DNA of 64,000 nucleotides from Candidatus Heimdallarchaeota archaeon (GTDB taxonomy: Archaea; Asgardarchaeota; Heimdallarchaeia; JABLTI01). The translations under genes and the position numbers were made by a program. Every line of letters begins with the position of its first letter. Positions within the stretch are counted from its first letter, which is position 1. Positions 28,885-41,967 of the stretch are shown here, in pieces. A model generated the notes under the pieces. It did no database searches. It worked only from the letters and a program-made list of their open reading frames with translations, and was not told where the DNA came from. The stretch lies in assembly GCA_019056785.1 (NCBI GenBank), contig DXJV01000001.1:10600-74599 (forward strand), written 5' to 3'.

Positions 28885-30018
28885 ATGCTCGTGAGAAAAA
28901 TGCAAGTCAGACAACCAACAGTTTTTATTGATAAAGCAAAAGTTTTGGCCAATATCGAACGAATGTGTAAAAAAGCTCAAAACAACAAAGTGCTTTTGCG
29001 CCCTCATTTTAAAACCCATCAATCAGCAACTATTGGTGAGTGGTTCAGGAAAGCAGGTGTCAAAGCAATCACTGTTTCTTCCGTTGAGATGGCTGAGTAC
29101 TTTGCCGAACATGGTTGGAACGACATTACAATTGCTTTCATTGTTAATGTCCAGCAAATCGAACAAATCAATGCTCTGGCAAACAAAATCACTTTGAATC
29201 TACTAGTTGATTCTTTTAATACGGTGGAGTTTTTAGACAAACACTTAACTGCGAATGTAAACCTCTGGATAAAAGTTGATACCGGTTACCATCGAACAGG
29301 CATTAATTGGGATGACGAGGCAACATTATCACATCTCATTCGCCGGATTAAGAACTGTGAGAAAATGCATTTCGAGGGGTTATTGACCCATAATGGGTTA
29401 ACTTACAATGCTAAATCTCGCGAGGAAATAAAAGACTTGCATGAAGATTCTATCATTAAATTAAAAGATATCCAAGAACGGTTGTTTTTGCAAGGTTTTT
29501 CCATCGTTAAACTATCTATTGGTGACACTCCGGCTTGCAGTGTGGTTGAAGATTTTAAAGGTATCAATGAAATACGTCCTGGTAATTTCGTTTTTTATGA
29601 TGTTATGCAATTAAAATTAGGTTCCTGCACAGAAGAACAAATTGCTATGGCAGTAGCTTGCCCAGTTGTGGGAAAATACCCGGAACGGAACGAATTGGTA
29701 ATCTATGGAGGAGCAGTTCATCTTTCAAAAGAGTATGTTAGTGGTTTTTTTGGTAATGAGATTAATTATGGATTAATAGCTTTTCCGAAAGAGAAAGGCT
29801 GGGGAAAAATCGAACAAAACGTCTACCTTGCAAAGCTTTCACAAGAACATGGCATTATTTCTGCTCCAAAAGATTTTATTGAAAAAATTCATGTTGGCGA
29901 CATTCTTTTTGTTTTACCAATTCATTCTTGTCTTACAGGTAATCTCCATCAGCATTATTTTACTTTAGATTCAAAGGAAATTACAACAATTAAAAGAAAT
30001 AAGAGAAACCAAGTATAA
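28885..30018 (+). CDS. PLP fold-III enzyme (D-threonine aldolase/D-serine dehydratase-like)
   Basis: LRPHFKTH, DTGYHRTG, GDTP, EIRPGNFVFYD, SQEHG, P.HSC. Confidence 0.88.
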   Translation: MLVRKMQVRQPTVFIDKAKVLANIERMCKKAQNNKVLLRPHFKTHQSATIGEWFRKAGVKAITVSSVEMAEYFAEHGWNDITIAFIVNVQQIEQINALANKITLNLLVDSFNTVEFLDKHLTANVNLWIKVDTGYHRTGINWDDEATLSHLIRRIKNCEKMHFEGLLTHNGLTYNAKSREEIKDLHEDSIIKLKDIQERLFLQGFSIVKLSIGDTPACSVVEDFKGINEIRPGNFVFYDVMQLKLGSCTEEQIAMAVACPVVGKYPERNELVIYGGAVHLSKEYVSGFFGNEINYGLIAFPKEKGWGKIEQNVYLAKLSQEHGIISAPKDFIEKIHVGDILFVLPIHSCLTGNLHQHYFTLDSKEITTIKRNKRNQV

Positions 30019-30031
30019 GAAATGCTTGGCG

Positions 30032-30643
30032 TTATTTAATATCAATTTGTGCTTTACAAATTGGACAATGTTGCTTGGAAGAAAGCCATTCGATTAAATG
30101 GTCGTCATGGAAGAGAGTATAGCAATTGGGGCACTGGAGGACGAGGTCATCTTTTGTTAAGATTAGTTTGCAAATGCCACAAGTCTGTTCTTCCAATGTT
30201 CCTCTGTAAATTAACGGGGCAATTTTCTGCCAATCGACTTCGTAGGTTTCAGCTTGTTCCTGCAAGCGTATTTGTGAATTCTCTTCAACCTGTTTTGGTA
30301 TCTTTAATGGTGAGTCATCAATTGCTTCTGAGGATTGATACGGTGCTGCTAATTTGGTAGAAGAAACTCTCTCTCCGGATGGCGTTTGTTTCTTTAAAGC
30401 ACTGAATGCTCCTGTAAAAGTCGCTATTGTGGTAAATATTACGACTATGATAAATACAGACATGCCAATGCCACCAACTATCACAAATGGTAAATACGTT
30501 TTAAAATCCATTAAGCGATTAAAATCTCCGCCAATTAATCCAACTCTAATTACCAATGCAATTCCTGATAAGATAACAAGCCCAAAACTGATAAAACCAA
30601 TAATTAACGGAATTGAAAAACGTACAGTTTTTTTTGTCTTCAA
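30032..30643 (-). CDS. 2-TM membrane protein with C-terminal RING-variant finger (putative E3 ligase)
   Basis: CGIC..CPNC...H..H...W......CPIC after two TM helices. Confidence 0.8.
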   Translation of the reverse strand: MKTKKTVRFSIPLIIGFISFGLVILSGIALVIRVGLIGGDFNRLMDFKTYLPFVIVGGIGMSVFIIVVIFTTIATFTGAFSALKKQTPSGERVSSTKLAAPYQSSEAIDDSPLKIPKQVEENSQIRLQEQAETYEVDWQKIAPLIYRGTLEEQTCGICKLILTKDDLVLQCPNCYTLFHDDHLIEWLSSKQHCPICKAQIDIK

Positions 30644-30789
30644 TTTAGTTCCTATTGATGATTATTTTTTAATTATTAAAACCTTTGTAAAAATAACATA
30701 GGCATAAAAATAGAATTAAAAGTAGTCAAAAAAGGCGTTTAAAATTTTGTCGAAAGAAATTTCAATAAAAAAGAAAAAAAAAGAAGTTA

Positions 30790-31692
30790 TTATTCGCTAA
30801 CTTCTTGTACCTGAATGGCTGCTTTTTTAATATCATGAGAAGAACTGAAGGAATAAATAATATGCATGCCTTCTCGTTCTTTCATGGTTCGTACAATCCA
30901 GGCTTTTCCGCGAATTCTTTTCTTTAACCAATCTGGTAAGATCCAACCGAGATAGCCAAAGATCAGCCGTAAAATTGTTGCCGCTAATCGCAAGGCTTGT
31001 AAGAAAAGCATTGCTTTTGAATTCGAATAAATACTTGGGAGGTAAAACAGCACGAGTACAACGGTACTTCCTATCAGAGAAACAATACTTATGTCAATGT
31101 ACAATATTCCTCTTTTTGGCACCGGTTCGGTTATTTTCCTATCAATAATAACAACATTGTAGCTAATTCTTAGCAAGACAAAGATAAGTAATGGAATAAA
31201 CAATACGAGTGAAAGAGCTGCTACCGGCGCAAAAATCTCAATGTTCGTATTTGGCAATAAGAAGAGGTCACTTGTATTAATATACAAGTCCTCTCCAAGT
31301 AATAACTCTGAAAACATGGTAGTAGTAACTACTGCGATTGTTTCACTGAGGAACACACCCATGAGTGATTTGACAAAGTCATTGTCCTTGAGAATATGTC
31401 GTGTGGAAAAGAAATAGAAGAATAAGATACTTAAGGCATACAAGTTCAAGAATAGTATTTGGAAAATTCCTGAGAGATTTTTTGAACTAATATTAAAAGC
31501 CTCAAACCAATAGGATAGTGTATTTGCACCCTCTCCTAAACCGAGTAAAGTAAAAGTGAACAATAAAAATGCTGTACCAAGAGTCTTTTTCTTGATAAAA
31601 GCATAAAGCAAGAATAATGCATAACTAATTGCGAAAATCCCAAGAAACAAAGAGGTAATGAGATAAAACCATGTTTGACCTGTAAGTGCCAT
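30790..31692 (-). CDS. Seven-transmembrane protein with cytoplasmic tail
   Basis: Seven hydrophobic segments ending GYLGWILPDWLKKR. Confidence 0.7.
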   Translation of the reverse strand: MALTGQTWFYLITSLFLGIFAISYALFLLYAFIKKKTLGTAFLLFTFTLLGLGEGANTLSYWFEAFNISSKNLSGIFQILFLNLYALSILFFYFFSTRHILKDNDFVKSLMGVFLSETIAVVTTTMFSELLLGEDLYINTSDLFLLPNTNIEIFAPVAALSLVLFIPLLIFVLLRISYNVVIIDRKITEPVPKRGILYIDISIVSLIGSTVVLVLFYLPSIYSNSKAMLFLQALRLAATILRLIFGYLGWILPDWLKKRIRGKAWIVRTMKEREGMHIIYSFSSSHDIKKAAIQVQEVSE

Positions 31693-31696
31693 TTTT

Positions 31697-32230
31697 TCAT
31701 TCTCCTAAAATTTTTATGAACCAAGACATTGATTCAAAAATACCTTCACCTGTTTTAGCTGAAGTTTCAAAGACTGCCCACGTGATTTTTAAATTTGGGT
31801 CCATTAAACCAAAATCGCCGACAAATTATACACGTTCCATCCTATCGGGCAGATTAATTTTACTAAGAATTATCAACAATACCGGAATTTCAGGATTGAT
31901 TTGGTTTTTAATTATGTTGTGGAAAATTTCCTTTGTCTCTTCAAACCAGAGATAATCTGTGCTATCTACAACATAAATAAGTGCATTTGTTTTTTCATTG
32001 ATATCTGTTCATAGAGGCCGAAAATCTTCTCCTCCCAAATCAAAAATATGGATGTCTAAATTTGGAAAGCTAATTGTTTTACGATTCAATCCCATTGTTG
32101 GTGCTGTTTCTTTGAATTCTTCTTCGATTAAATAGTTTAAATAAGTAGTTTTCACTGCTTTGTCCAAGCCGCAAATTGTTAGATTAACTGGTTTCGACTT
32201 GCGTCTGAAGAGCCTGCGGAGAAATACCAT
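31697..32230 (-). pseudogene. Arf-family small GTPase pseudogene
   Basis: The reading frame continues past the 73-aa ORF: RPL*TDINEKTNALIYVVDST..SKIN..RV*..ETSAKTGEGIFESMSWF. In-frame TGA at 32009-32011 and TAA at 31826-31828; G1, G3 and G4 also damaged. Confidence 0.88.
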
Positions 32231-32257
32231 TTGTCTCTTGCCCCCTCCTCTTACTTG

Positions 32258-32758
32258 CTATCTCCAAATGTCGTCTTTAACAGACTCGAGAAATTCTTCA
32301 CCTCGATCTTTCTTTTTCTTTTTTGAATCGTCATCAAAGTTGAATTCTAAGGTGACAACAGAACTGATTTTAATCTTAACTTTCCCTTTTTTGAGACCTT
32401 CCAACATACTTGACAGAATCTTAGAGAAGGTATTGGTATCGCTCATGTTGTATCTTTGAAGTTCCATGATCGTGGAGAAGAATTTCCGAACAGTATCACG
32501 GTCATAATTTGGATTGTCGTAGATAGCCACTAAGGAGGCAATGTTCTGCCGTTCATCACTGGGAACCGAGAAAATAAAGCACTCTATTTGATAGCCTTCT
32601 ACTGTACTAGAGGCAAAATCACCTGCTTTGGCACTAAGGGGCATACTCTTCAAGACAATTTCATTCAAAATAATATTGGGTATGGTATCAGGGACAACTG
32701 TGACAAGTTCAAGCCCAGACTTTCCAATGCTCGTTAAACAAAGGTTTGTTGGTTTCAA
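32258..32758 (-). CDS. uDENN/longin-like domain protein
   Basis: N-terminal strand-G.EL...P, helix ending SMP, FIFSVP..ER..IASLV pattern as recalled for Asgard uDENN proteins. Confidence 0.5.
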   Translation of the reverse strand: MKPTNLCLTSIGKSGLELVTVVPDTIPNIILNEIVLKSMPLSAKAGDFASSTVEGYQIECFIFSVPSDERQNIASLVAIYDNPNYDRDTVRKFFSTIMELQRYNMSDTNTFSKILSSMLEGLKKGKVKIKISSVVTLEFNFDDDSKKKKKDRGEEFLESVKDDIWR

Positions 32759-33042: not shown

Positions 33043-35178
33043 ATGGTCAAACAAAAACAAACAATCCTTTTGGTAAGTCTAATAGTCATTTCAAGTTTTT
33101 TTTTGTGTTTTAGTATACAGAGAAATTCCAGTGGGGTATCTGCTTTTGACTATCCTGTTACTCGCAGCCAGGAAGACCTTACAATTGAGTTCACCACAAA
33201 CCAATCTGGCATTGGAAAAGACAGTGGTGCTTTAGGAACCTTGGTCCTAAGAAATAATGGTGCAAATGCCATTGGGAACATCGCTATTGACTTTGGTCTT
33301 AATGGGAAATACGTAGAAATAACTACTAGTTATGCTCAGCATCAAGAGCTAAGCCTGTTAAACCCCGGCTATTCTGAAACATTCAATATCGAAGTTGGAT
33401 TAAACAAGTCAGAATTTACCGGTGAGGAACCATTAAACATGGTAGATCTTTGTCTCGTCTTTGATAGTAGCGGTTCAATGGGTGAGGAAATCGAGGCTGT
33501 AAAAAATGCGTTCTTAGACATTGTAAGCAATTTAACTGAACAGATCGATTCTCTCCAAATTGGTGCTATTGCCTATGGTTGGGCGAAATACTCGGAATAT
33601 CCACAAGAAAGTCCAAACAATTACGTTCCCTTTACCGAAGACTTTGATTGGGTGAATGATTTTATTAATAGCCTTTATCCTGCAGGAGGGACCGAACCGT
33701 GGGGAGACGCTCTCTACCTGGCAAATAGCTGGAATTGGCGCCCGGATGCAAACAAACTTCTCATAATTGTTGGAGATGAGGATTGCGACCCGGGTAAAAT
33801 TGTTGGGGCCGGTTCTTCCGGTTCTTATTATAATGGTTCACAATTGGTGGAGGTCGTTGAAAACCTGAAGGCAAAAGAGGTCAAGATTAATTCAGTTCGT
33901 ACAGGAAATGAAGCAATTTTCGTTAATCAATTCACATGGATAGCTGAAGCCACAGAAGGTATAAGTGTAGATCTTGAGGAGCTTCAAAATGGCGATCCAC
34001 CGATCACTCTGCCTGAGCTAATTGAATCATGGACCTTGGAACTCAAGCGAGAATACTATATCTATCTTTATGCTAATATTACTTGGACAGAATTTGATGT
34101 GGGAGGAGATATTACTTATTCCACCCAAAAAGGACTTTATTTGTTATTTGATGTTGCTCCACCTTTTATTAGCGTTTCAACATTAGTAATAGCAAATCCT
34201 GATTCCACATTTACATTTCAAATCTATGCAACAGTCAAAGATTTATCAGGCATCGCTACGACCAGTATTTACTGGACCTTTGATGACCTAGACGGTGGGT
34301 CCGAACCTCTCTGGCATTTTGAGATTTTAAGTAATATTTCCAATCATGTCTATTTGAAAGAATTAACAGGGTTAGCTCTCGGGGAAAACCTTTCGTTTTA
34401 TTTTGTTGCATTTGATTCATTATACAATCGCGGAGAAAGCCAGATATACAACTGCACAGTGGAAATTCAAAAAAATGTCTTTGGGACAACAACAACAGTC
34501 TTCTTTCCGGCTAATAATACAATGGTCGCCCTCTATTTCGACTTAGCGAAAAAGTCGTATGGGTATTTGAGACTTGATAATTTTATTGGTAGCTATTCAC
34601 TTTTGCCAAATTCAAACTTCACTCTTGAAACCAAATTTGTCAGTGAAGATAAGCAAATCGTTCGTGTGATTAAAACGGGTTTAGAGGATTTCGCAGTAAT
34701 CACCTTTGTTGGCAATACAACAACTGACCCAACAATAATCTTCTGGAACTTCGATATTTTCTTAATAGAGGAAGAATTAAATGGCTATAGTTCCTATTTC
34801 GATGCTAAAAGAACAAACCTTTTGATTCGTGTTGAAATTAGCAATGAAAATCAACTCTGCTTGGTTAGAATTGATCCAGAGCTCATAGCAGTTGTCAAAG
34901 TCTTCGATGAAAATTGGAATTACATCGGAAAAGCCAGTTTCACAGAAGCGTTAACACTAGTAGAAGGGACTTATTATCTTTGGGCGTATAATGTCTTACG
35001 AGATGGATCCTTTAAATTCTATTTCGGGAATGATCCCCCCCTAGAAACAGATAACTATTATAACCAGGTGCCAATTCCATTCCCGATACTTCTTCTTATC
35101 GTTATTCTCACACTAAGTGGGTTTTCCCTCTTTAATCGAAGAAAGAAGCACCGGGGAAAATATAAACAAAGGATTTAG
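33043..35178 (+). CDS. Membrane-anchored vWA (MIDAS) protein with Ig-like domains
   Basis: Signal peptide; VDLCLVFDSSGSM, GGTEPWGDAL, WRPDANKLLIIVGDE; C-terminal TM and basic tail. Confidence 0.88.
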   Translation: MVKQKQTILLVSLIVISSFFLCFSIQRNSSGVSAFDYPVTRSQEDLTIEFTTNQSGIGKDSGALGTLVLRNNGANAIGNIAIDFGLNGKYVEITTSYAQHQELSLLNPGYSETFNIEVGLNKSEFTGEEPLNMVDLCLVFDSSGSMGEEIEAVKNAFLDIVSNLTEQIDSLQIGAIAYGWAKYSEYPQESPNNYVPFTEDFDWVNDFINSLYPAGGTEPWGDALYLANSWNWRPDANKLLIIVGDEDCDPGKIVGAGSSGSYYNGSQLVEVVENLKAKEVKINSVRTGNEAIFVNQFTWIAEATEGISVDLEELQNGDPPITLPELIESWTLELKREYYIYLYANITWTEFDVGGDITYSTQKGLYLLFDVAPPFISVSTLVIANPDSTFTFQIYATVKDLSGIATTSIYWTFDDLDGGSEPLWHFEILSNISNHVYLKELTGLALGENLSFYFVAFDSLYNRGESQIYNCTVEIQKNVFGTTTTVFFPANNTMVALYFDLAKKSYGYLRLDNFIGSYSLLPNSNFTLETKFVSEDKQIVRVIKTGLEDFAVITFVGNTTTDPTIIFWNFDIFLIEEELNGYSSYFDAKRTNLLIRVEISNENQLCLVRIDPELIAVVKVFDENWNYIGKASFTEALTLVEGTYYLWAYNVLRDGSFKFYFGNDPPLETDNYYNQVPIPFPILLLIVILTLSGFSLFNRRKKHRGKYKQRI

Positions 35179-35189
35179 GAGGAACAAAA

Positions 35190-38100
35190 GTGTTACGTCG
35201 GAAATTGCAGCGATATGTCATAATAACCAGCACTATCTTAGTCATCCTATTAGTTGCAACAATAACAACTTATGCGTTTCAAAAGGACCAAAAATTAACG
35301 AATCCACAATTAGTGGAAGATTATTCGTATACATTAATTGACAACACTTCTTTCAATTTTTCTACCATTGAATTTGAGAGCATTAATTATAATAGTTCAA
35401 TGACTGTTGTTGATGTTCTCTCGATTGATGATTCTCTAACTAGCCCTCCGAATCTAATCATGGTTTATGGTTCAAAAGAAAATACTACAGGGTATCAGCA
35501 TGGATTCATTGAGCTTTATGCTGTAAGCCAAGTTGGCTACCAAGCGGCGCTCCAAAAAGTGGCGGGATTCCTTGATGCTTCCCTAGACAATGAGACAGTA
35601 TTCCAAAAAGGATGTTATTTTATCAATAACATTAATGACCTTTTCTTCTATATGTTAAAGCAGAAAGGTCCGGATTATTTTATTGATATATTGGCTTATC
35701 AGAATCAGCACTTGGAATTAAACGCCTCCATCCCAATTAACTCTTTACTGTTAGAAGAAACATGGGATTTTGCTGTCATGGATAAAGAACCGGACAAACT
35801 TGTCAATCTCTTTCTGGTCGGGCAAAATCAAACCACACATAAAATTTCCTTAGTAGAGTTTCAGTTAAATGTGACAACCACAAACATGAATTATATTCAA
35901 TCATTTTCTTGGGATTTTCAAGGAAAAACCTTTGTTGATTTACAGACAACCTTGGAAGCTGACGCTGCGTACTTCTATCTTTGTAGCGTGGGAACGAGTC
36001 CAGCTTTATATACTTCCATGACTGTTTTTTCAGTTCAAAAAACCCTAGAAAGCTCCCTCACACTGGTAAGTAATAACAGCTATACTTATGGGGGCAATTC
36101 TTTCAGAGCTTACTCAACAAAATTCTTGTCAAGAGCTAACACCGGGCACAAACAGCTAGCATTGTTTGGAACATTAATTATCGATGGTGTAGATAGCTAT
36201 CCTTATTGTCTAATTCTCTCCTATACAAATGGCGTTCCAACAGCAGCGGAGGGAATACAACTGGAGCAAACGCCTAGTTGGTGTTTAACAGGTTTTATTG
36301 CTGATTTAAACTATGACAGCGAAAGAGAACTTGTGCTTTTCACATATGACTTTGTTTATCATCAGCGAAGTGAGTTTACACTTCTTTCTAACACCACTAA
36401 GCAAGAACTTACTAGCGGTTTGTACTCTTTTTCACAAGTCAAAAGCAGCGCTTTGTTAACAATTGAGGGGTTGAGTATAAGCGCCATCTTAGCTAAAGAC
36501 TCGAGTCAAAACGATGTTTTAGTTTTTCACAAACTCGGGTTTACACCCTTTAAATTACGAGCAAATTCTGAATTATTGCAAATTAATGCTCTAAACAGTT
36601 TACTCTTAGAAAGCTATGGCATAAATGGTACACCTATTACGGTCTCAAATGCAATTACTAATTTTGCTGTACATGGGGTGGTGAATTTAGACACAACTAT
36701 AACAATAATGCCTTCAATAATAACCTTAGAAATACCTAGCGTTGCTCACTCGAGTGATCTTTTACAGTTCTCTATTGATATCTTTCAAAATTCGTTCGTT
36801 ATTTACAGTAAAACATTTTATGTGTCGTTGGGATATGTGCCAAAGATAACTGTGATTGCCCCAGGGTCACCAATAGCAATCCGTTTGAATGAGTCTAAAA
36901 CCGAGATTTTTGAATTTTTAGTAAACAATCAACTGCCGGTTACTTTAATCGGTGAAATTTCTATTATTAGTTCGCAAAGAACAAAGACTACCCAAATCAA
37001 TTGTTTGCCAGCCGAAGAGACCGAAATAGGCATCAACTTCAATTTTGCAAAGCCTGTCGGAACAAAACAAGCAGTTGAGAATCTATCAATTCTAATTAAA
37101 ACTCAAATTGGAACTTTCAGATTCCAATATGCTGTAGTAGTTTCAACTGGTTTGACAATTGGCTATATGGATCTAACAGCAATAACGGTTACTTTACTCC
37201 TTATAACAACGATAGGTTATTTAGCTTTTGTTTTTGCCATCTCTCGAGAGACAGAAGAAAGTCTCGAAGCCTATTACTTGTTAAAGGAACCCAAGAAGCT
37301 GGAGTTCAAAAGATTTGAAAAACAAGCACAAAGACATTTGCTTCAAAAATGCCTTCAGAATAAAAACTGGCAAGTGGGGTTGGAATTAGCAAAGGCTCGT
37401 TACCCCGAGTACGTTGCGAAATTCCTAAAGTTCAAAGCAGACGAACAATTACTCATGGCTCAAAAGCTTCTCCAGAATGGAGAATTTATCAAAGGTTTAT
37501 CCCATTTGGAATCTGCTCGCGAAGCTCTAGAAATGATCCGTTCCAAACCAATCGTTGAGCTCCTTGATGGGTTCATTATACCCTTAAAGAAGCTCTTAGA
37601 TGCTATAGAACATATGAAAGGGTTAGAGAAAGTTGCCATGCTCAAAGATGCTTTTCAGAAGTTGCTGCGATTACGTAAAAAGAAAGAAGAAGAGAAAAAA
37701 GGAGAAGAGGAAGCGTTTTCCTTAAAAGAATTCCCATTCTATCTTATCGCCAAAGAATTAGCTGTTGCTTTCAAAGAAAATGGTGACTTGGAAAATGCAT
37801 TGAATTTCTTGCAAATCGCATATCAGGACGCTCCCAATGGGAAGAAAAATGACATCGTGCTGGAAATCACAGACCTTATTCGCCTCGGATTAAAGCCGAA
37901 AGAACTAACAATTCCAGATGATTTTGAGGTAATAAAAGAGCGGTTAAAGAATAAAAAAATAATGTGCTTTAATTGCGGGTTCAAATACTTTGACTCTGAA
38001 CCAACTTGTCCGCAGTGTGGTACCGGAACAGTTAAATGTTCTGTTTGTAAACTGCCGATTTCTTTTGGTTCTTTAACACTCGAGTGCCCTCATTGTCATA

Positions 38101-38210
38101 CCATTGCTCACCAAGAACATCTCCTCGAGTGGATAAAAGTCAAAGGCACCTGTCCGGTCTGCCAGCAAAAATTGAAGCTTGATGAGTTTTCTCCAATAAC
38201 TCAAATATAG
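35190..38210 (+). CDS. Single-pass receptor-like protein: extracellular beta-rich region, TM, TPR-like helices, Zn ribbon, RING finger
   Basis: FIADLNYDSERELVL FG-GAP/VCBS-like loop; TM LTAITVTLLLITTIGYLAFVFAI; CFNC..CPQC; CSVC..CPHC..H..H..W..CPVC; GGAGG SD. Confidence 0.82.
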   Translation: MLRRKLQRYVIITSTILVILLVATITTYAFQKDQKLTNPQLVEDYSYTLIDNTSFNFSTIEFESINYNSSMTVVDVLSIDDSLTSPPNLIMVYGSKENTTGYQHGFIELYAVSQVGYQAALQKVAGFLDASLDNETVFQKGCYFINNINDLFFYMLKQKGPDYFIDILAYQNQHLELNASIPINSLLLEETWDFAVMDKEPDKLVNLFLVGQNQTTHKISLVEFQLNVTTTNMNYIQSFSWDFQGKTFVDLQTTLEADAAYFYLCSVGTSPALYTSMTVFSVQKTLESSLTLVSNNSYTYGGNSFRAYSTKFLSRANTGHKQLALFGTLIIDGVDSYPYCLILSYTNGVPTAAEGIQLEQTPSWCLTGFIADLNYDSERELVLFTYDFVYHQRSEFTLLSNTTKQELTSGLYSFSQVKSSALLTIEGLSISAILAKDSSQNDVLVFHKLGFTPFKLRANSELLQINALNSLLLESYGINGTPITVSNAITNFAVHGVVNLDTTITIMPSIITLEIPSVAHSSDLLQFSIDIFQNSFVIYSKTFYVSLGYVPKITVIAPGSPIAIRLNESKTEIFEFLVNNQLPVTLIGEISIISSQRTKTTQINCLPAEETEIGINFNFAKPVGTKQAVENLSILIKTQIGTFRFQYAVVVSTGLTIGYMDLTAITVTLLLITTIGYLAFVFAISRETEESLEAYYLLKEPKKLEFKRFEKQAQRHLLQKCLQNKNWQVGLELAKARYPEYVAKFLKFKADEQLLMAQKLLQNGEFIKGLSHLESAREALEMIRSKPIVELLDGFIIPLKKLLDAIEHMKGLEKVAMLKDAFQKLLRLRKKKEEEKKGEEEAFSLKEFPFYLIAKELAVAFKENGDLENALNFLQIAYQDAPNGKKNDIVLEITDLIRLGLKPKELTIPDDFEVIKERLKNKKIMCFNCGFKYFDSEPTCPQCGTGTVKCSVCKLPISFGSLTLECPHCHTIAHQEHLLEWIKVKGTCPVCQQKLKLDEFSPITQI

Positions 38211-40923: not shown

Positions 40924-41967
40924 ATGAGCGACTTAAAAACGAATGCTTTAAAAGAATTGGTTTCAACCCCCAAGGATTTGAACAAACTAATTCTCTATGA
41001 AGCTAATCTCAAAAAGGCTTATTTATTATTACTTTTTGACTGTCGCACTTCTCTTCTTAATAGTTTGCAAGGCGGTGGGCTTTCCCCTCGAATTGATCGT
41101 CTTTTGCGCCAATTAAAAACCAGGCTTGATTCCTTAATTGACCGGGCCCGTTATGATGAATTGCGTTTTCGTCCAGGAACAGCCGCTTCCGTTCGAAAAA
41201 CAACTGCGAATAATTGTCTGCTCTATAATTTCATCATTTTCAGTCGTGCTTGGGATTTGAAAGATTATTTAAAGGAATTTGATTCACTTCTTCTTTTTAG
41301 TGAAGAGGCGCAAACTCTTGATAAAGCAAAATCCATTTTACGTATTATTACTGATATTGATGATTTGCTCTCCAATAAAGAGAACGTTAAAACCAACATT
41401 CAATCAACAGAAGAGGTGGCTAATTCCCTGTACGAACGTTTTAACCGTGAATTAGAACTAGCTGAAACTGCTGGTGCGCTTAAAGGAATTATTAAATTAG
41501 AGAAGCCCAAGTTATTAGGGAAATCGAAATATTTCAAGCAGTTGGGAAGTTTAATCTTGAAAGTGGCTTTTTCTTTTGGCATAGAACATGCAGAGGAGCC
41601 CATTTCTCTCATTGCCCTGACAACTCGCTTAAACGACACCTACCCTCGGGTTCGAGCTGAGCCAAAAGATATTTTTAAAGCAGTAGAAAGCCTTGCTGAG
41701 AATGGCTTTCTCTATTTAACGAAAGACGAACATGATGTCTATTGGATCTCCTTAAAACCATCTGAAAGCGAAGCAAATGTCATTCTTTCTTTAGCTGAGA
41801 AGAAAGGGTCCTTAACACTCGAGGAAGTAGTCCGGGAAACGAATTGGTCATTAAAGAAGGCTAAGAGCGAATTAGATAAATTTGTCACAGCTGGTTGCGC
41901 TATTAAGGATGATAACTACTCTTCTGGCCTTATTTATTACTTCCCAGCATTGCAAAACGAAGAGTGA
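40924..41967 (+). CDS. ESCRT-II Vps22/Vps36 (EAP30)-like tandem winged-helix protein with extra N-terminal helical domain
   Basis: C-terminal half YFKQLG..I..DI.KAV..L...G..VILSLAEKKG.LT.EEV....NWS...A...L......G....D......YYFP matches the SNF8/Vps22 pattern. Confidence 0.78.
   Translation: MSDLKTNALKELVSTPKDLNKLILYEANLKKAYLLLLFDCRTSLLNSLQGGGLSPRIDRLLRQLKTRLDSLIDRARYDELRFRPGTAASVRKTTANNCLLYNFIIFSRAWDLKDYLKEFDSLLLFSEEAQTLDKAKSILRIITDIDDLLSNKENVKTNIQSTEEVANSLYERFNRELELAETAGALKGIIKLEKPKLLGKSKYFKQLGSLILKVAFSFGIEHAEEPISLIALTTRLNDTYPRVRAEPKDIFKAVESLAENGFLYLTKDEHDVYWISLKPSESEANVILSLAEKKGSLTLEEVVRETNWSLKKAKSELDKFVTAGCAIKDDNYSSGLIYYFPALQNEE

Follow-up and report, generated by a model that had tools for sequence, protein, structure and literature searches.

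Architecture and distribution of a linked vWA and propeller–transmembrane–RING gene pair in Heimdallarchaeia, a candidate two-subunit receptor

Results

Organization of the gene pair

The DNA described here (the window) is a 64,000-nucleotide stretch of contig DXJV01000001.1 from the genome of a Candidatus Heimdallarchaeota archaeon (GenBank assembly GCA_019056785.1, positions 10,600 to 74,599 of the forward strand), and our subject is a pair of adjacent genes within it. Gene 1 encodes a 711-residue surface protein with a von Willebrand factor A (vWA) domain, hereafter vWA-711, and gene 2, which starts with GTG, encodes a 1006-residue membrane protein that carries a β-propeller outside the cell and a RING finger inside (Table 1). 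In the open reading frame (ORF) listing both genes lie on the + strand and are separated by 11 bp, just as a first-pass annotation of the window had described them. The two motifs singled out in that annotation are also in place, DSSGS beginning at nucleotide 33463 (D141 of gene 1) and ADLNYDSEREL at nucleotide 36300 (A371 of gene 2). The G+C content is ~37% across the window. The locus is also present in contigs from at least six other studies of sediment and hydrothermal-vent metagenomes and is therefore real rather than an artefact of assembly.

Architecture of the vWA surface protein

The AlphaFold2 (AF2) model of gene 1, built on an alignment of 42 homologues (mean pLDDT 83.8), begins with an N-terminal hydrophobic helix, a six-strand Ig-like unit (residues 46–120), the vWA domain (133–333) and a long β-hairpin (337–370). 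An Ig-like domain (375–472) and a large β-sandwich (483–662) follow the hairpin and lead to a transmembrane (TM) helix and a Lys/Arg-rich tail of 14 residues, NRRKKHRGKYKQRI. The ectodomain has 11 N-glycosylation sequons and four Cys. Pfam assigns residues 135–289 to the vWA family (PF00092; E 1.5e-9, 38.8 bits against a cut-off of 23.8), and the residues D141, S143, S145 and D245 of the metal-ion-dependent adhesion site (MIDAS) are invariant among the 42 homologues. Together, the profile match and the invariant DxSxS...D pattern confirm the vWA domain with an intact MIDAS that had been proposed. The position usually occupied by the MIDAS Thr (217) varies among T, H, I and V, and the next residue, Glu218, is invariant within the segment E-P-W-G-D-A. 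The vWA domain is the best-conserved part of gene 1, with 56% identity among the homologues.

Fold comparisons of gene 1 give two pictures that differ with the method. A rigid-body comparison (VIA) of the vWA domain places it with ITIH1, TFIIH p44, ArnB and Rpn10 at Z 19–21 and gives integrin β a Z of ~16. Foldseek, which tolerates domain motions, lists mainly integrin β headpieces (E ~1e-10 over ~390 columns) along with pilus adhesins in which an Ig-type domain carries a grafted vWA. When the gene 1 family profile is searched against sequences in the PDB, it matches the collagen VI vWA (E 9e-4) and an Ig-like domain of Porphyromonas peptidylarginine deiminase (residues 385–461, E 0.001), and no integrin.

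The segment that precedes the vWA domain has a weak CARDB match (residues 45–122, E 0.022) that covers positions 3–73 only of the 101 in the profile. The hairpin after the vWA domain superposes on the integrin β hybrid-domain strands that follow βI, with model residues 132–374 laid on β3 residues 110–392, and in the complex model described below its tip (351–356) lies beside loops 72–79 and 104–110. Because the CARDB match ends early, the hairpin overlies hybrid-domain strands and its tip adjoins these two loops, the N-terminal Ig segment and the hairpin likely form one sandwich into which the vWA is inserted as in the hybrid domain. This arrangement, like the propeller face discussed below, is deduced from residue ranges and contact lists rather than from coordinates; on that footing, the earlier view of an Ig-like segment interrupted by a vWA domain is likely. 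At the C-terminus, the anchor gives sub-threshold NCBIfam matches to Loki-CTERM (16.8 bits, cut-off 19.9) and Heimdall-CTERM (16.1 bits, cut-off 24), and several homologues carry a PGF-like motif before the TM helix. No archaeosortase or exosortase (PF09721) was found in this 82.5%-complete genome.

Propeller ectodomain of gene 2

The AF2 model of gene 2 (mean pLDDT 84.3, alignment of 20 homologues) contains 28 strands at residues 61–448 that make up seven blades of four strands each, and so bears out the propeller suspected from the ADLNYDSEREL motif. Loops of the conserved form D-x-D-x-D-(G)-x-x-E are found in two of the blades, at 193–206, where the window protein has a degenerate version, and at 372–380. 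FG-GAP_3 of Pfam matches 2 of the 20 family members (best E 2.8e-6), and the window protein itself has no FG-GAP match in Pfam at E up to 1. By language-model features, the nearest clusters are prokaryotic FG-GAP/VCBS and CARDB surface proteins (score 0.84, which serves as a lead only). The DxDxDG loops, the FG-GAP_3 matches in 2 of 20 members and the nearest clusters together assign the gene 2 propeller to the common prokaryotic FG-GAP/VCBS-like class.

In an exhaustive fold search (VIA), integrin αM aligns with gene 2 over residues 55–650 (Z 27.3, 446 residues aligned) and integrin αL reaches Z 25.7 (rmsd 3.8, 348 residues), while CylK and many WD40 propellers score like the integrin α chains (Z 24–27). 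Integrin α chains, in which the top of the Foldseek list is also rich, are the only fold matches that cover the legs as well as the propeller. The Ig-like legs that had been expected between propeller and membrane are present (454–557 and 569–652), but there are two of them and not three. Each ectodomain of the pair has four or five Cys. The sequons of gene 2 are sharply divided, with 13 before the second TM helix and none in the 308-residue tail, and this division fixes the topology of the protein.

Identity among the gene 2 homologues is 62% in the RING, 40% in the helical scaffold that precedes it and 19–25% in the ectodomain, where the Ig legs are the fastest-evolving part (median identity 19–23%). 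Such a gradient would fit a conserved output joined to a diversifying sensor. A profile of the ectodomain, searched against 1.84 billion representatives, finds no relatives outside the family apart from one marginal Ig-domain match in a 3623-residue protein.

Cytoplasmic tail and RING finger

The inner part of gene 2 had been annotated as TPR-like helices, a Zn ribbon and a RING after one TM helix, and the AF2 model, the Pfam matches and the invariant Zn ligands agree with that order. From NCBIfam the tail draws only a weak LapB-like (TPR plus Zn) match (E 3e-4). The RING has the spacing C-x2-C-x12-C-x2-C-x4-H-x2-H-x10-C-x2-C (C4H2C2), which is not the canonical RING-H2 order. All eight Zn ligands are invariant among the gene 2 homologues, as are V952, W981 and P989, which we take to occupy the usual E2-contact positions of RING fingers, namely the hydrophobic residue following Cys1, the helix Trp and the Pro following Cys7. 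Weak matches aside, the RING (949–992) is the sole Pfam assignment for gene 2. With the tail scanned alone, zf-RING_2 reaches 27.8 bits and so just exceeds its cut-off of 27.3, and the same profile matches 18 of the 20 family members. The nearest solved sequences are RNF4 (1.9e-5), RNF126 (1.2e-4) and EL5 (0.01), all of them active E3 ubiquitin ligases, and H974, H977 and W981 are in register with a His, a Cys and a Trp of EL5.

The genome encodes the components with which such a finger could work: three UQ_con (E2-like) matches exceed the cut-off (best 1.2e-34), and there are one ubiquitin gene (3.4e-13) and ThiF-type E1-like genes. Gene 2 itself is not a neighbour of the E2 or ubiquitin genes. 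In vitro, E3 activity has been demonstrated for small RING proteins from archaea, those of Asgard lineages included (PMC5654768; 10.1101/2023.07.25.550441).

Ten ORFs in this genome end in a finger of the form C-x2-C-x12-C-x2-C-x4-H-x2-H-x10-11-C-x2-C, several of them sharing the start CxxCKLPISFG, and a crude hydropathy scan marks six of the ten as membrane-anchored. Examples, given as contig and coordinates, are C14:28094-30157, C14:37359-39191, C47:59405-60667, C47:102309-103460, C51:55549-56751, C63:881-1486, C72:3209-3604 and C99:3711-5027. To judge by their motifs, the ten ORFs constitute an expanded RING family with varied N-terminal parts.

Table 1 Features of the gene pair in the window. 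Residue numbers refer to the protein in question; aa, amino acids.
Feature	Position (nt)	Strand	Basis
Gene 1, vWA-711 surface protein, 711 aa	33043..35178	+	ORF; 52 Asgard homologues of ~700 aa; AF2 pLDDT 83.8
Signal peptide or N-terminal hydrophobic helix, aa 1-34	33043..33144	+	Helix 2-23, then low-pLDDT linker; sequons downstream
N-terminal Ig/CARDB-like segment, aa 45-122; probably first part of split β-sandwich	33175..33408	+	Weak CARDB match; six strands
vWA domain, aa 133-333; MIDAS DSSGS at nt 33463-33477	33439..34041	+	Pfam VWA E 1.5e-9; fold matches
Long β-hairpin after vWA, aa 337-370; likely second part of hybrid-like sandwich	34051..34152	+	Strands 337-352 and 355-370 in model
Ig-like domain, aa 375-472, and membrane-proximal β-sandwich, aa 483-662	34165..35028	+	AF2 secondary structure
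C-terminal TM anchor and Lys/Arg-rich 14-aa tail	35074..35175	+	Helix from 681; sub-threshold CTERM matches
Gene 2, propeller–TM–RING protein, 1006 aa	35190..38210	+	ORF; 24 relatives; AF2 pLDDT 84.3
N-terminal hydrophobic helix, aa 2-31; signal anchor or signal peptide	35193..35282	+	AF2 helix 2-31; conserved in all homologues
Seven-blade FG-GAP-like β-propeller, aa 55-451	35352..36542	+	28 strands; fold matches; FG-GAP_3 in relatives
Degenerate Ca-loop position, aa 193-206; relatives have DxDxDGxxE	35766..35807	+	Blade alignment; D198, D202 invariant
DxNxDxxxE loop, aa 372-380 (DLNYDSERE), FG-GAP-type Ca-binding motif	36303..36329	+	D372, D376 invariant, E380 nearly; relatives DIDYDGxDE
Two Ig-like legs, aa 454-557 and 569-652	36549..37145	+	AF2; alignment with integrin α headpiece and leg chains (55-650)
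Second TM helix, aa 659-690	37164..37259	+	AF2 helix 659-698; sequons only before TM
Cytoplasmic helical (TPR-like) scaffold, aa 707-898	37308..37883	+	Nine helices; weak LapB match E 3e-4; weak TPR matches in some members
Zn ribbon, aa 923-946, CxxC...CxxC	37956..38027	+	C926, C929, C940, C943 invariant or nearly; weak DZR match
RING finger, aa 949-992; ligands C950, C953, C966, C969, H974, H977, C988, C991	38034..38165	+	zf-RING_2 match; invariant ligands

Predicted heterodimer

The two ectodomains are predicted to bind one another. Complex prediction with residues 42–375 of gene 1 and 32–455 of gene 2, using unpaired alignments, yields an ipSAE of 0.74, and the best of three controls scores 0.00; the interface between the chains that had been conjectured from the integrin-like layout is to this extent supported. 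A value of 0.74 is reached by 58 of 80 solved complexes and by 2 of 110 mismatched pairs, a calibration that is approximate here since the alignments were of our own making. At least 85% of contacts are shared between runs, and the partner pLDDT is 79 or higher. The predicted interface pairs residues 72–79, 104–110 and 351–356 of gene 1 with the gene 2 loops at 247, 267–273, 304–309, 328–336, 362–366 and 388–390, and includes no residue of the vWA domain (133–333). As modelled, then, it is the Ig/hairpin unit of gene 1 and not the vWA that docks on the propeller, unlike in integrins; given this difference, the passing score is unlikely to stem from integrin structures memorized by the predictor. 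On the assumption that the blades follow the FG-GAP register, in which the DxDxDG loop connects strands 1 and 2, the contacts would fall on the 4–1 and 2–3 loops, and the face contacted would be the 'upper' one, opposite the Ca loops.

Distribution, linkage and exchange of partners

The gene 2 ectodomain profile finds only 24 proteins among the 1.84 billion representatives, of which 11 are full-length, all with ~1000–1030 residues, and the others are shorter and apparently partial. A survey of 83 genomes of the class places gene 2 solely in the window's GTDB genus (g1), where 8 of the 10 other species have it; none of the 72 genomes from other genera does. In each of these eight species the gene immediately upstream, with the same orientation, is gene 1. 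Gaps in g1 measure 1–47 bp, and synteny in the genus spans ~10 genes. Conservation of the pair across Asgard genomes, which had been put forward as a check, is thus seen as linkage in every relative that has gene 2, but gene 2 is confined to one genus.

The gene 1 family reaches further. It is present in 44 of the 83 class genomes and in 41 of 301 genomes of an even sample of the phylum, 40 of the 41 belonging to the window's class. About 50 loci of the family were fetched, and a TM-RING neighbour is present in ~40 of them. At 20 of 20 loci in g8, and at one locus in g6, a two-TM RING gene lies directly downstream of the vWA gene on the same strand, with gaps of ~5 bp in g8; these partners have mostly 426–464 residues (two are truncated, at 215 and 257), and their finger scores above the zf-RING_2 cut-off. 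In g16, the neighbour at 8 of 14 loci is a TM-WD40-TSP3-TM protein that bears a RING-like finger and a Zn ribbon, and its gene either converges on the vWA gene or points the same way. A Lokiarchaeial metagenome-assembled genome (MAG) contains a 1272-residue SBBP-propeller-TM-RING gene flanked by two vWA-711 genes. The pairing persists across genera although the flanking genes differ. Read from these loci, the conserved unit appears to be the vWA-711 surface protein together with a two-TM, RING-tailed protein whose ectodomain is exchangeable (FG-GAP-like propeller, WD40, SBBP or small domain), and the gene pair of the window is one version of this wider Heimdallarchaeial scheme. A quick maximum-likelihood tree (IQ-TREE) of the vWA proteins has clades that follow partner type and taxonomy alike; since the clades coincide with taxonomy, co-evolution is not demonstrated.

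Several loci depart from these patterns. Two g16 genomes (L017:1198-5871 (-) and L018:3160-7824 (-)) have, after the vWA gene, a neighbour of 1554–1557 residues with an N-terminal TM helix, a late TM helix and a 200-residue tail; the tail of the 1557-residue protein has no Zn finger and no Pfam match. In a complete g16 genome the partner is split into a 524-residue WD40/TSP3 ORF (L013:5484-7058 (+)) and a 222-residue TM/Zn-finger ORF (L013:7138-7806 (+)). The only vWA-711 match outside the class in the 301-genome sample comes from genome G155, of another Asgard class, where the homologue is followed by a 485-residue protein (L057:677-2131 (-)) made up of a TM helix, an ectodomain of ~250 residues, a second TM helix and two winged-helix (helix-turn-helix-like) domains. 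MAGs in the window's own GTDB genus (L001/L002, L003 and L004/L005) are named Bathyarchaeia, Heimdallarchaeota and Thorarchaeota at NCBI, so these names are unreliable for lineage.

Neighbouring genes

Downstream of the RING gene, at a distance of 1.4–2.7 kb and in conserved synteny, lies a gene for an EAP30 (ESCRT-II Vps22/36-like) protein, with a weak Pfam match in relatives (window 40924-41967 (+); relatives L001:12460-13506 and L004:12361-13476). CYTH and GH31 genes surround it. The EAP30 neighbour could be a lead to a link between ubiquitin and ESCRT or mere within-genus synteny.

On the other side, four features occupy 30032-32758 (-) between a D-Ser-dehydratase-like gene (28885-30018) and gene 1: a 203-residue two-TM protein bearing the same C4H2C2 RING as gene 2 (30032-30643 (-)), a multi-TM protein (30790-31692 (-)), a short Arf-like region and a 166-residue ORF (32258-32758 (-)). 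In three relatives the vWA gene directly follows the dehydratase-like gene and this block is missing; the block is therefore a species-specific insertion that lies outside the conserved pair.

Discussion

A candidate receptor with a proposed ubiquitin-ligase output

We propose that genes 1 and 2 encode a two-subunit membrane receptor whose output is the recruitment of E2 by the RING, a reading that we hold at a probability of roughly 0.55. The first subunit would be a glycosylated surface protein that presents a metal-dependent MIDAS vWA on a split, Ig-like 'hybrid-type' sandwich. The second would span the membrane, with the FG-GAP-like seven-blade propeller and two Ig-like legs outside and the helical scaffold, Zn ribbon and RING inside. 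The far end of the first subunit's sandwich is predicted to plug onto one face of the propeller, which would leave the vWA/MIDAS face free for a ligand. Binding of a ligand outside the cell, or clustering, may then alter the state of the cytoplasmic RING, which would recruit one of the cell's E2~ubiquitin conjugates. The resulting ubiquitylation could fall on the receptor itself, on its partner or on nearby membrane proteins and would feed proteasome or ESCRT pathways.

Several observations count against this proposal. The alignments behind the complex prediction are unpaired and shallow (20 rows for gene 2), and the predicted interface residues are no more conserved than the rest of the two proteins (p = 0.50 and 0.98). 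In a full-length scan zf-RING_2 scores only 23.8 bits, below the cut-off of 27.3. Throughout the gene 2 family C991 is followed by Gln, at a position that is presumably Arg or Lys in many active RINGs and that is in fact K or R in the paralogues, in the g8 partners and in the Lokiarchaeial partner. The anchor of gene 1 resembles Asgard C-terminal sorting signals, if below threshold, and may be processed. Finally, vWA-711 occurs with no RING neighbour in a paralogue clade of the window genus, at six g16 loci, two of which have the 1557-residue neighbour, and in one Hodarchaeales MAG, and one lineage pairs it with a two-TM protein that has a winged-helix tail. It follows from these RING-less loci and the winged-helix partner that the vWA protein does not strictly need a RING.

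In a broader proposal, the vWA-711/TM-RING module would be a real ligand-gated ubiquitin-ligase receptor and the vWA protein a common co-receptor, combined with exchangeable sensors (FG-GAP-like, WD40, SBBP or small) as well as with exchangeable outputs (RING or winged helix). We advance this version tentatively and consider it possible but on the doubtful side.

Structural adhesin or signalling receptor

The strongest competing explanation, which we nevertheless judge unlikely, is that the complex is a structural adhesin or surface scaffold and that the RING tail serves its own turnover or quality control, with no relay of a signal. A vWA/MIDAS on Ig stalks is typical of adhesins, and PitA, RrgA, SpaC, GBS104 and Mfa5 are among the fold matches. 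Rapid evolution of the ectodomains is what one expects of exposed surface proteins, the Lys-rich tail of the partner could be a substrate, and the ESCRT-II-like EAP30 gene in conserved synteny would suit a turnover route. The large cytoplasmic part of gene 2 (308 residues), with a scaffold that keeps 40% identity, speaks somewhat against so limited a role for the tail, and the winged-helix-tailed partner in another lineage looks like one of a set of exchangeable sensor outputs rather than a housekeeping tag.

Function of the C-terminal finger

Even if the pair is a receptor, its finger need not be a ligase. Some prokaryotic RING fingers are not known to work with ubiquitin, and that of gene 2 could be a RING-like treble-clef Zn module that has no link to E2 or ubiquitin and binds another protein, a lipid or a nucleic acid. 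The order of its ligands, C4H2C2 with C-x2-C as second knuckle, is atypical, Prok-RING_1, PHD and C1 produce sub-threshold matches, and 7 of the 20 family members weakly match TackOD1, an archaeal output domain; the Gln that stands where many active RINGs have Arg or Lys points the same way. The best sequence matches are nonetheless active RING-H2 E3s, with H974, H977 and W981 in the register of EL5, and the positions thought to touch E2 (V952, W981, P989) do not vary. The finger also belongs to a genome that has E2 and ubiquitin genes and ten RING ORFs of this kind, and Asgard E1/E2/RING cascades work in vitro (10.1101/2023.07.25.550441). On balance, a finger of some other function seems to us improbable.

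Relationship to integrins

The layout of the pair invites comparison with integrin α and β chains. Like an integrin, the pair would form a two-chain surface receptor with both chains anchored in the membrane, one chain bearing a MIDAS vWA that is probably set in a β-sandwich and the other a seven-blade propeller with Ca-type loops on Ig-like legs. A true homology, in which the pair is either the ancestral form of eukaryotic integrin β/α or was acquired from it by transfer and the RING was added to the α chain, would account for the match of both chains to the integrin architecture and for the presence of integrin chains among the best Foldseek and VIA matches. It would also accommodate the variable MIDAS Thr beside the invariant Glu218, integrin β having, we believe, a Glu at the matching position. 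In addition, passages in papers that cite Liu et al. 2021 (PMC9197732, PMC9258230) mention 'integrin repeats' in Asgard genomes.

The details nevertheless leave such homology very unlikely, and the integrin β/α assignment implied by the first-pass annotation is not supported: no integrin profile matches, and both the vWA and the propeller match generic vWA and WD40 folds equally well or better. Neither window protein has a match to Integrin_beta, Integrin_alpha2 or FG-GAP in Pfam at E up to 1. The vWA is nearer to ITIH1, TFIIH p44, ArnB and Rpn10 (Z ~20) than to integrin β (Z ~16), and WD40 proteins match the propeller as well as integrin α does. Gene 1 has no PSI, I-EGF or β-tail domain, its stalk being β-sandwich throughout, and with four or five Cys per ectodomain there is no PSI or EGF stalk in either chain. 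The gene 1 tail has no NPxY, and gene 2 has no GFFKR, the sequence after its TM helix being SRETEESLE. Integrin α stands on thigh, calf-1 and calf-2 legs, whereas gene 2 has one leg domain fewer; integrin α has a short tail, whereas that of gene 2 runs to 308 residues and ends in a RING. The βI (vWA) domain sits on the propeller in integrins, whereas in the window pair the contact is predicted to be made by the Ig/hairpin unit and the vWA lies outside the predicted interface. Gene 2 is moreover confined to one genus, its propeller being replaced by WD40, SBBP or other ectodomains in relatives, and its nearest neighbours in feature space are prokaryotic FG-GAP/CARDB surface proteins.

The integrin-like layout is best read as a convergent assembly of common surface modules. 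As integrin tests, the profiles, the closeness of the vWA and propeller folds, the stalk domains, the tail motifs and the interface each fail or are neutral, and the propeller is of a prokaryotic FG-GAP/VCBS type that is swapped elsewhere for WD40, SBBP or small ectodomains, which leads to the same reading. Least likely of all, and hard to credit, is that the two proteins are mere neighbours, held together by conserved synteny or co-regulation and never interacting: genus synteny ~10 genes long, interface residues that show no special conservation and the many g16 partner genes that are convergent with the vWA gene would allow it, but the complex prediction passes with controls at 0.00, the same-orientation gaps are only 1–47 bp (g1) and ~5 bp (g8), and the pairing is kept across genera despite differing flanking genes.

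Comparison with other known systems

If the receptor proposed here is active as a ligase, its nearest functional analogues would appear to be the eukaryotic receptor-type TM RING ligases, namely ZNRF3/RNF43 and the PA-TM-RING proteins (RNF13, GRAIL/RNF128, plant RMR). These RING-H2 ligases, which work with a membrane partner or substrate, share with gene 2 an ectodomain, a single TM helix before the tail and a cytoplasmic RING, and it is to RING-H2 E3s that the gene 2 RING is nearest in sequence. The shared topology is the extent of the likeness: gene 2 has no Pfam match to the PA domain, and where PA-TM-RING proteins have a PA ectodomain it has an FG-GAP-like propeller and Ig legs. It adds to the receptor-type plan an N-terminal hydrophobic helix, a TPR-like scaffold, a Zn ribbon and the C4H2C2 order, and it differs too in its archaeal host and in its dedicated vWA partner gene.

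Closer in lineage are the small archaeal RING E3s of Caldiarchaeum subterraneum (PMC5654768) and Helarchaeia (10.1101/2023.07.25.550441), which act, or are able to act, with eukaryote-like E1, E2 and ubiquitin, and E2 and ubiquitin genes are likewise present in the genome of the window. These E3s, however, are soluble and encoded in ubiquitin or ESCRT operons, whereas gene 2 places its RING on the tail of a 1006-residue putative membrane receptor beside a vWA gene. The extracellular modules are familiar from prokaryotic FG-GAP/VCBS and CARDB proteins and from vWA-on-Ig pilus adhesins such as PitA, RrgA, SpaC, GBS104 and Mfa5, among which FG-GAP-like propellers, CARDB/Ig domains and vWA domains embedded in an Ig-type domain recur. 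Those proteins are single-chain and have no cytoplasmic signalling tail, whereas the window pair comprises two chains, one with a RING. In the literature on Asgard integrins, RING proteins, vWA proteins and transmembrane ligases, we found no description of a vWA and TM-RING pair.

Implications for Asgard archaea and eukaryotic membranes

Eukaryotic membranes are characterized by ubiquitin signalling, ESCRT sorting and the down-regulation of receptors, and the gene pair bears on how ubiquitin and ESCRT functions became coupled to extracellular events. If the proposed receptor is real, it would provide a transmembrane route with ubiquitylation as its direct output in the closest archaeal relatives of eukaryotes, and would represent either a prokaryotic forerunner or an independent invention of the eukaryotic receptor-type RING ligases, as well as an archaeal case of integrin-style two-chain architecture. 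Should the RING be active, the pair would offer a simple, testable model of receptor-coupled ubiquitylation in archaea, for which the soluble tail, E2 and ubiquitin can all be produced in E. coli. Surface modules that are common in prokaryotes can give rise to an integrin-like layout of two chains, and this calls for caution in reading the 'integrin repeats' of Asgard genomes as integrin ancestry.

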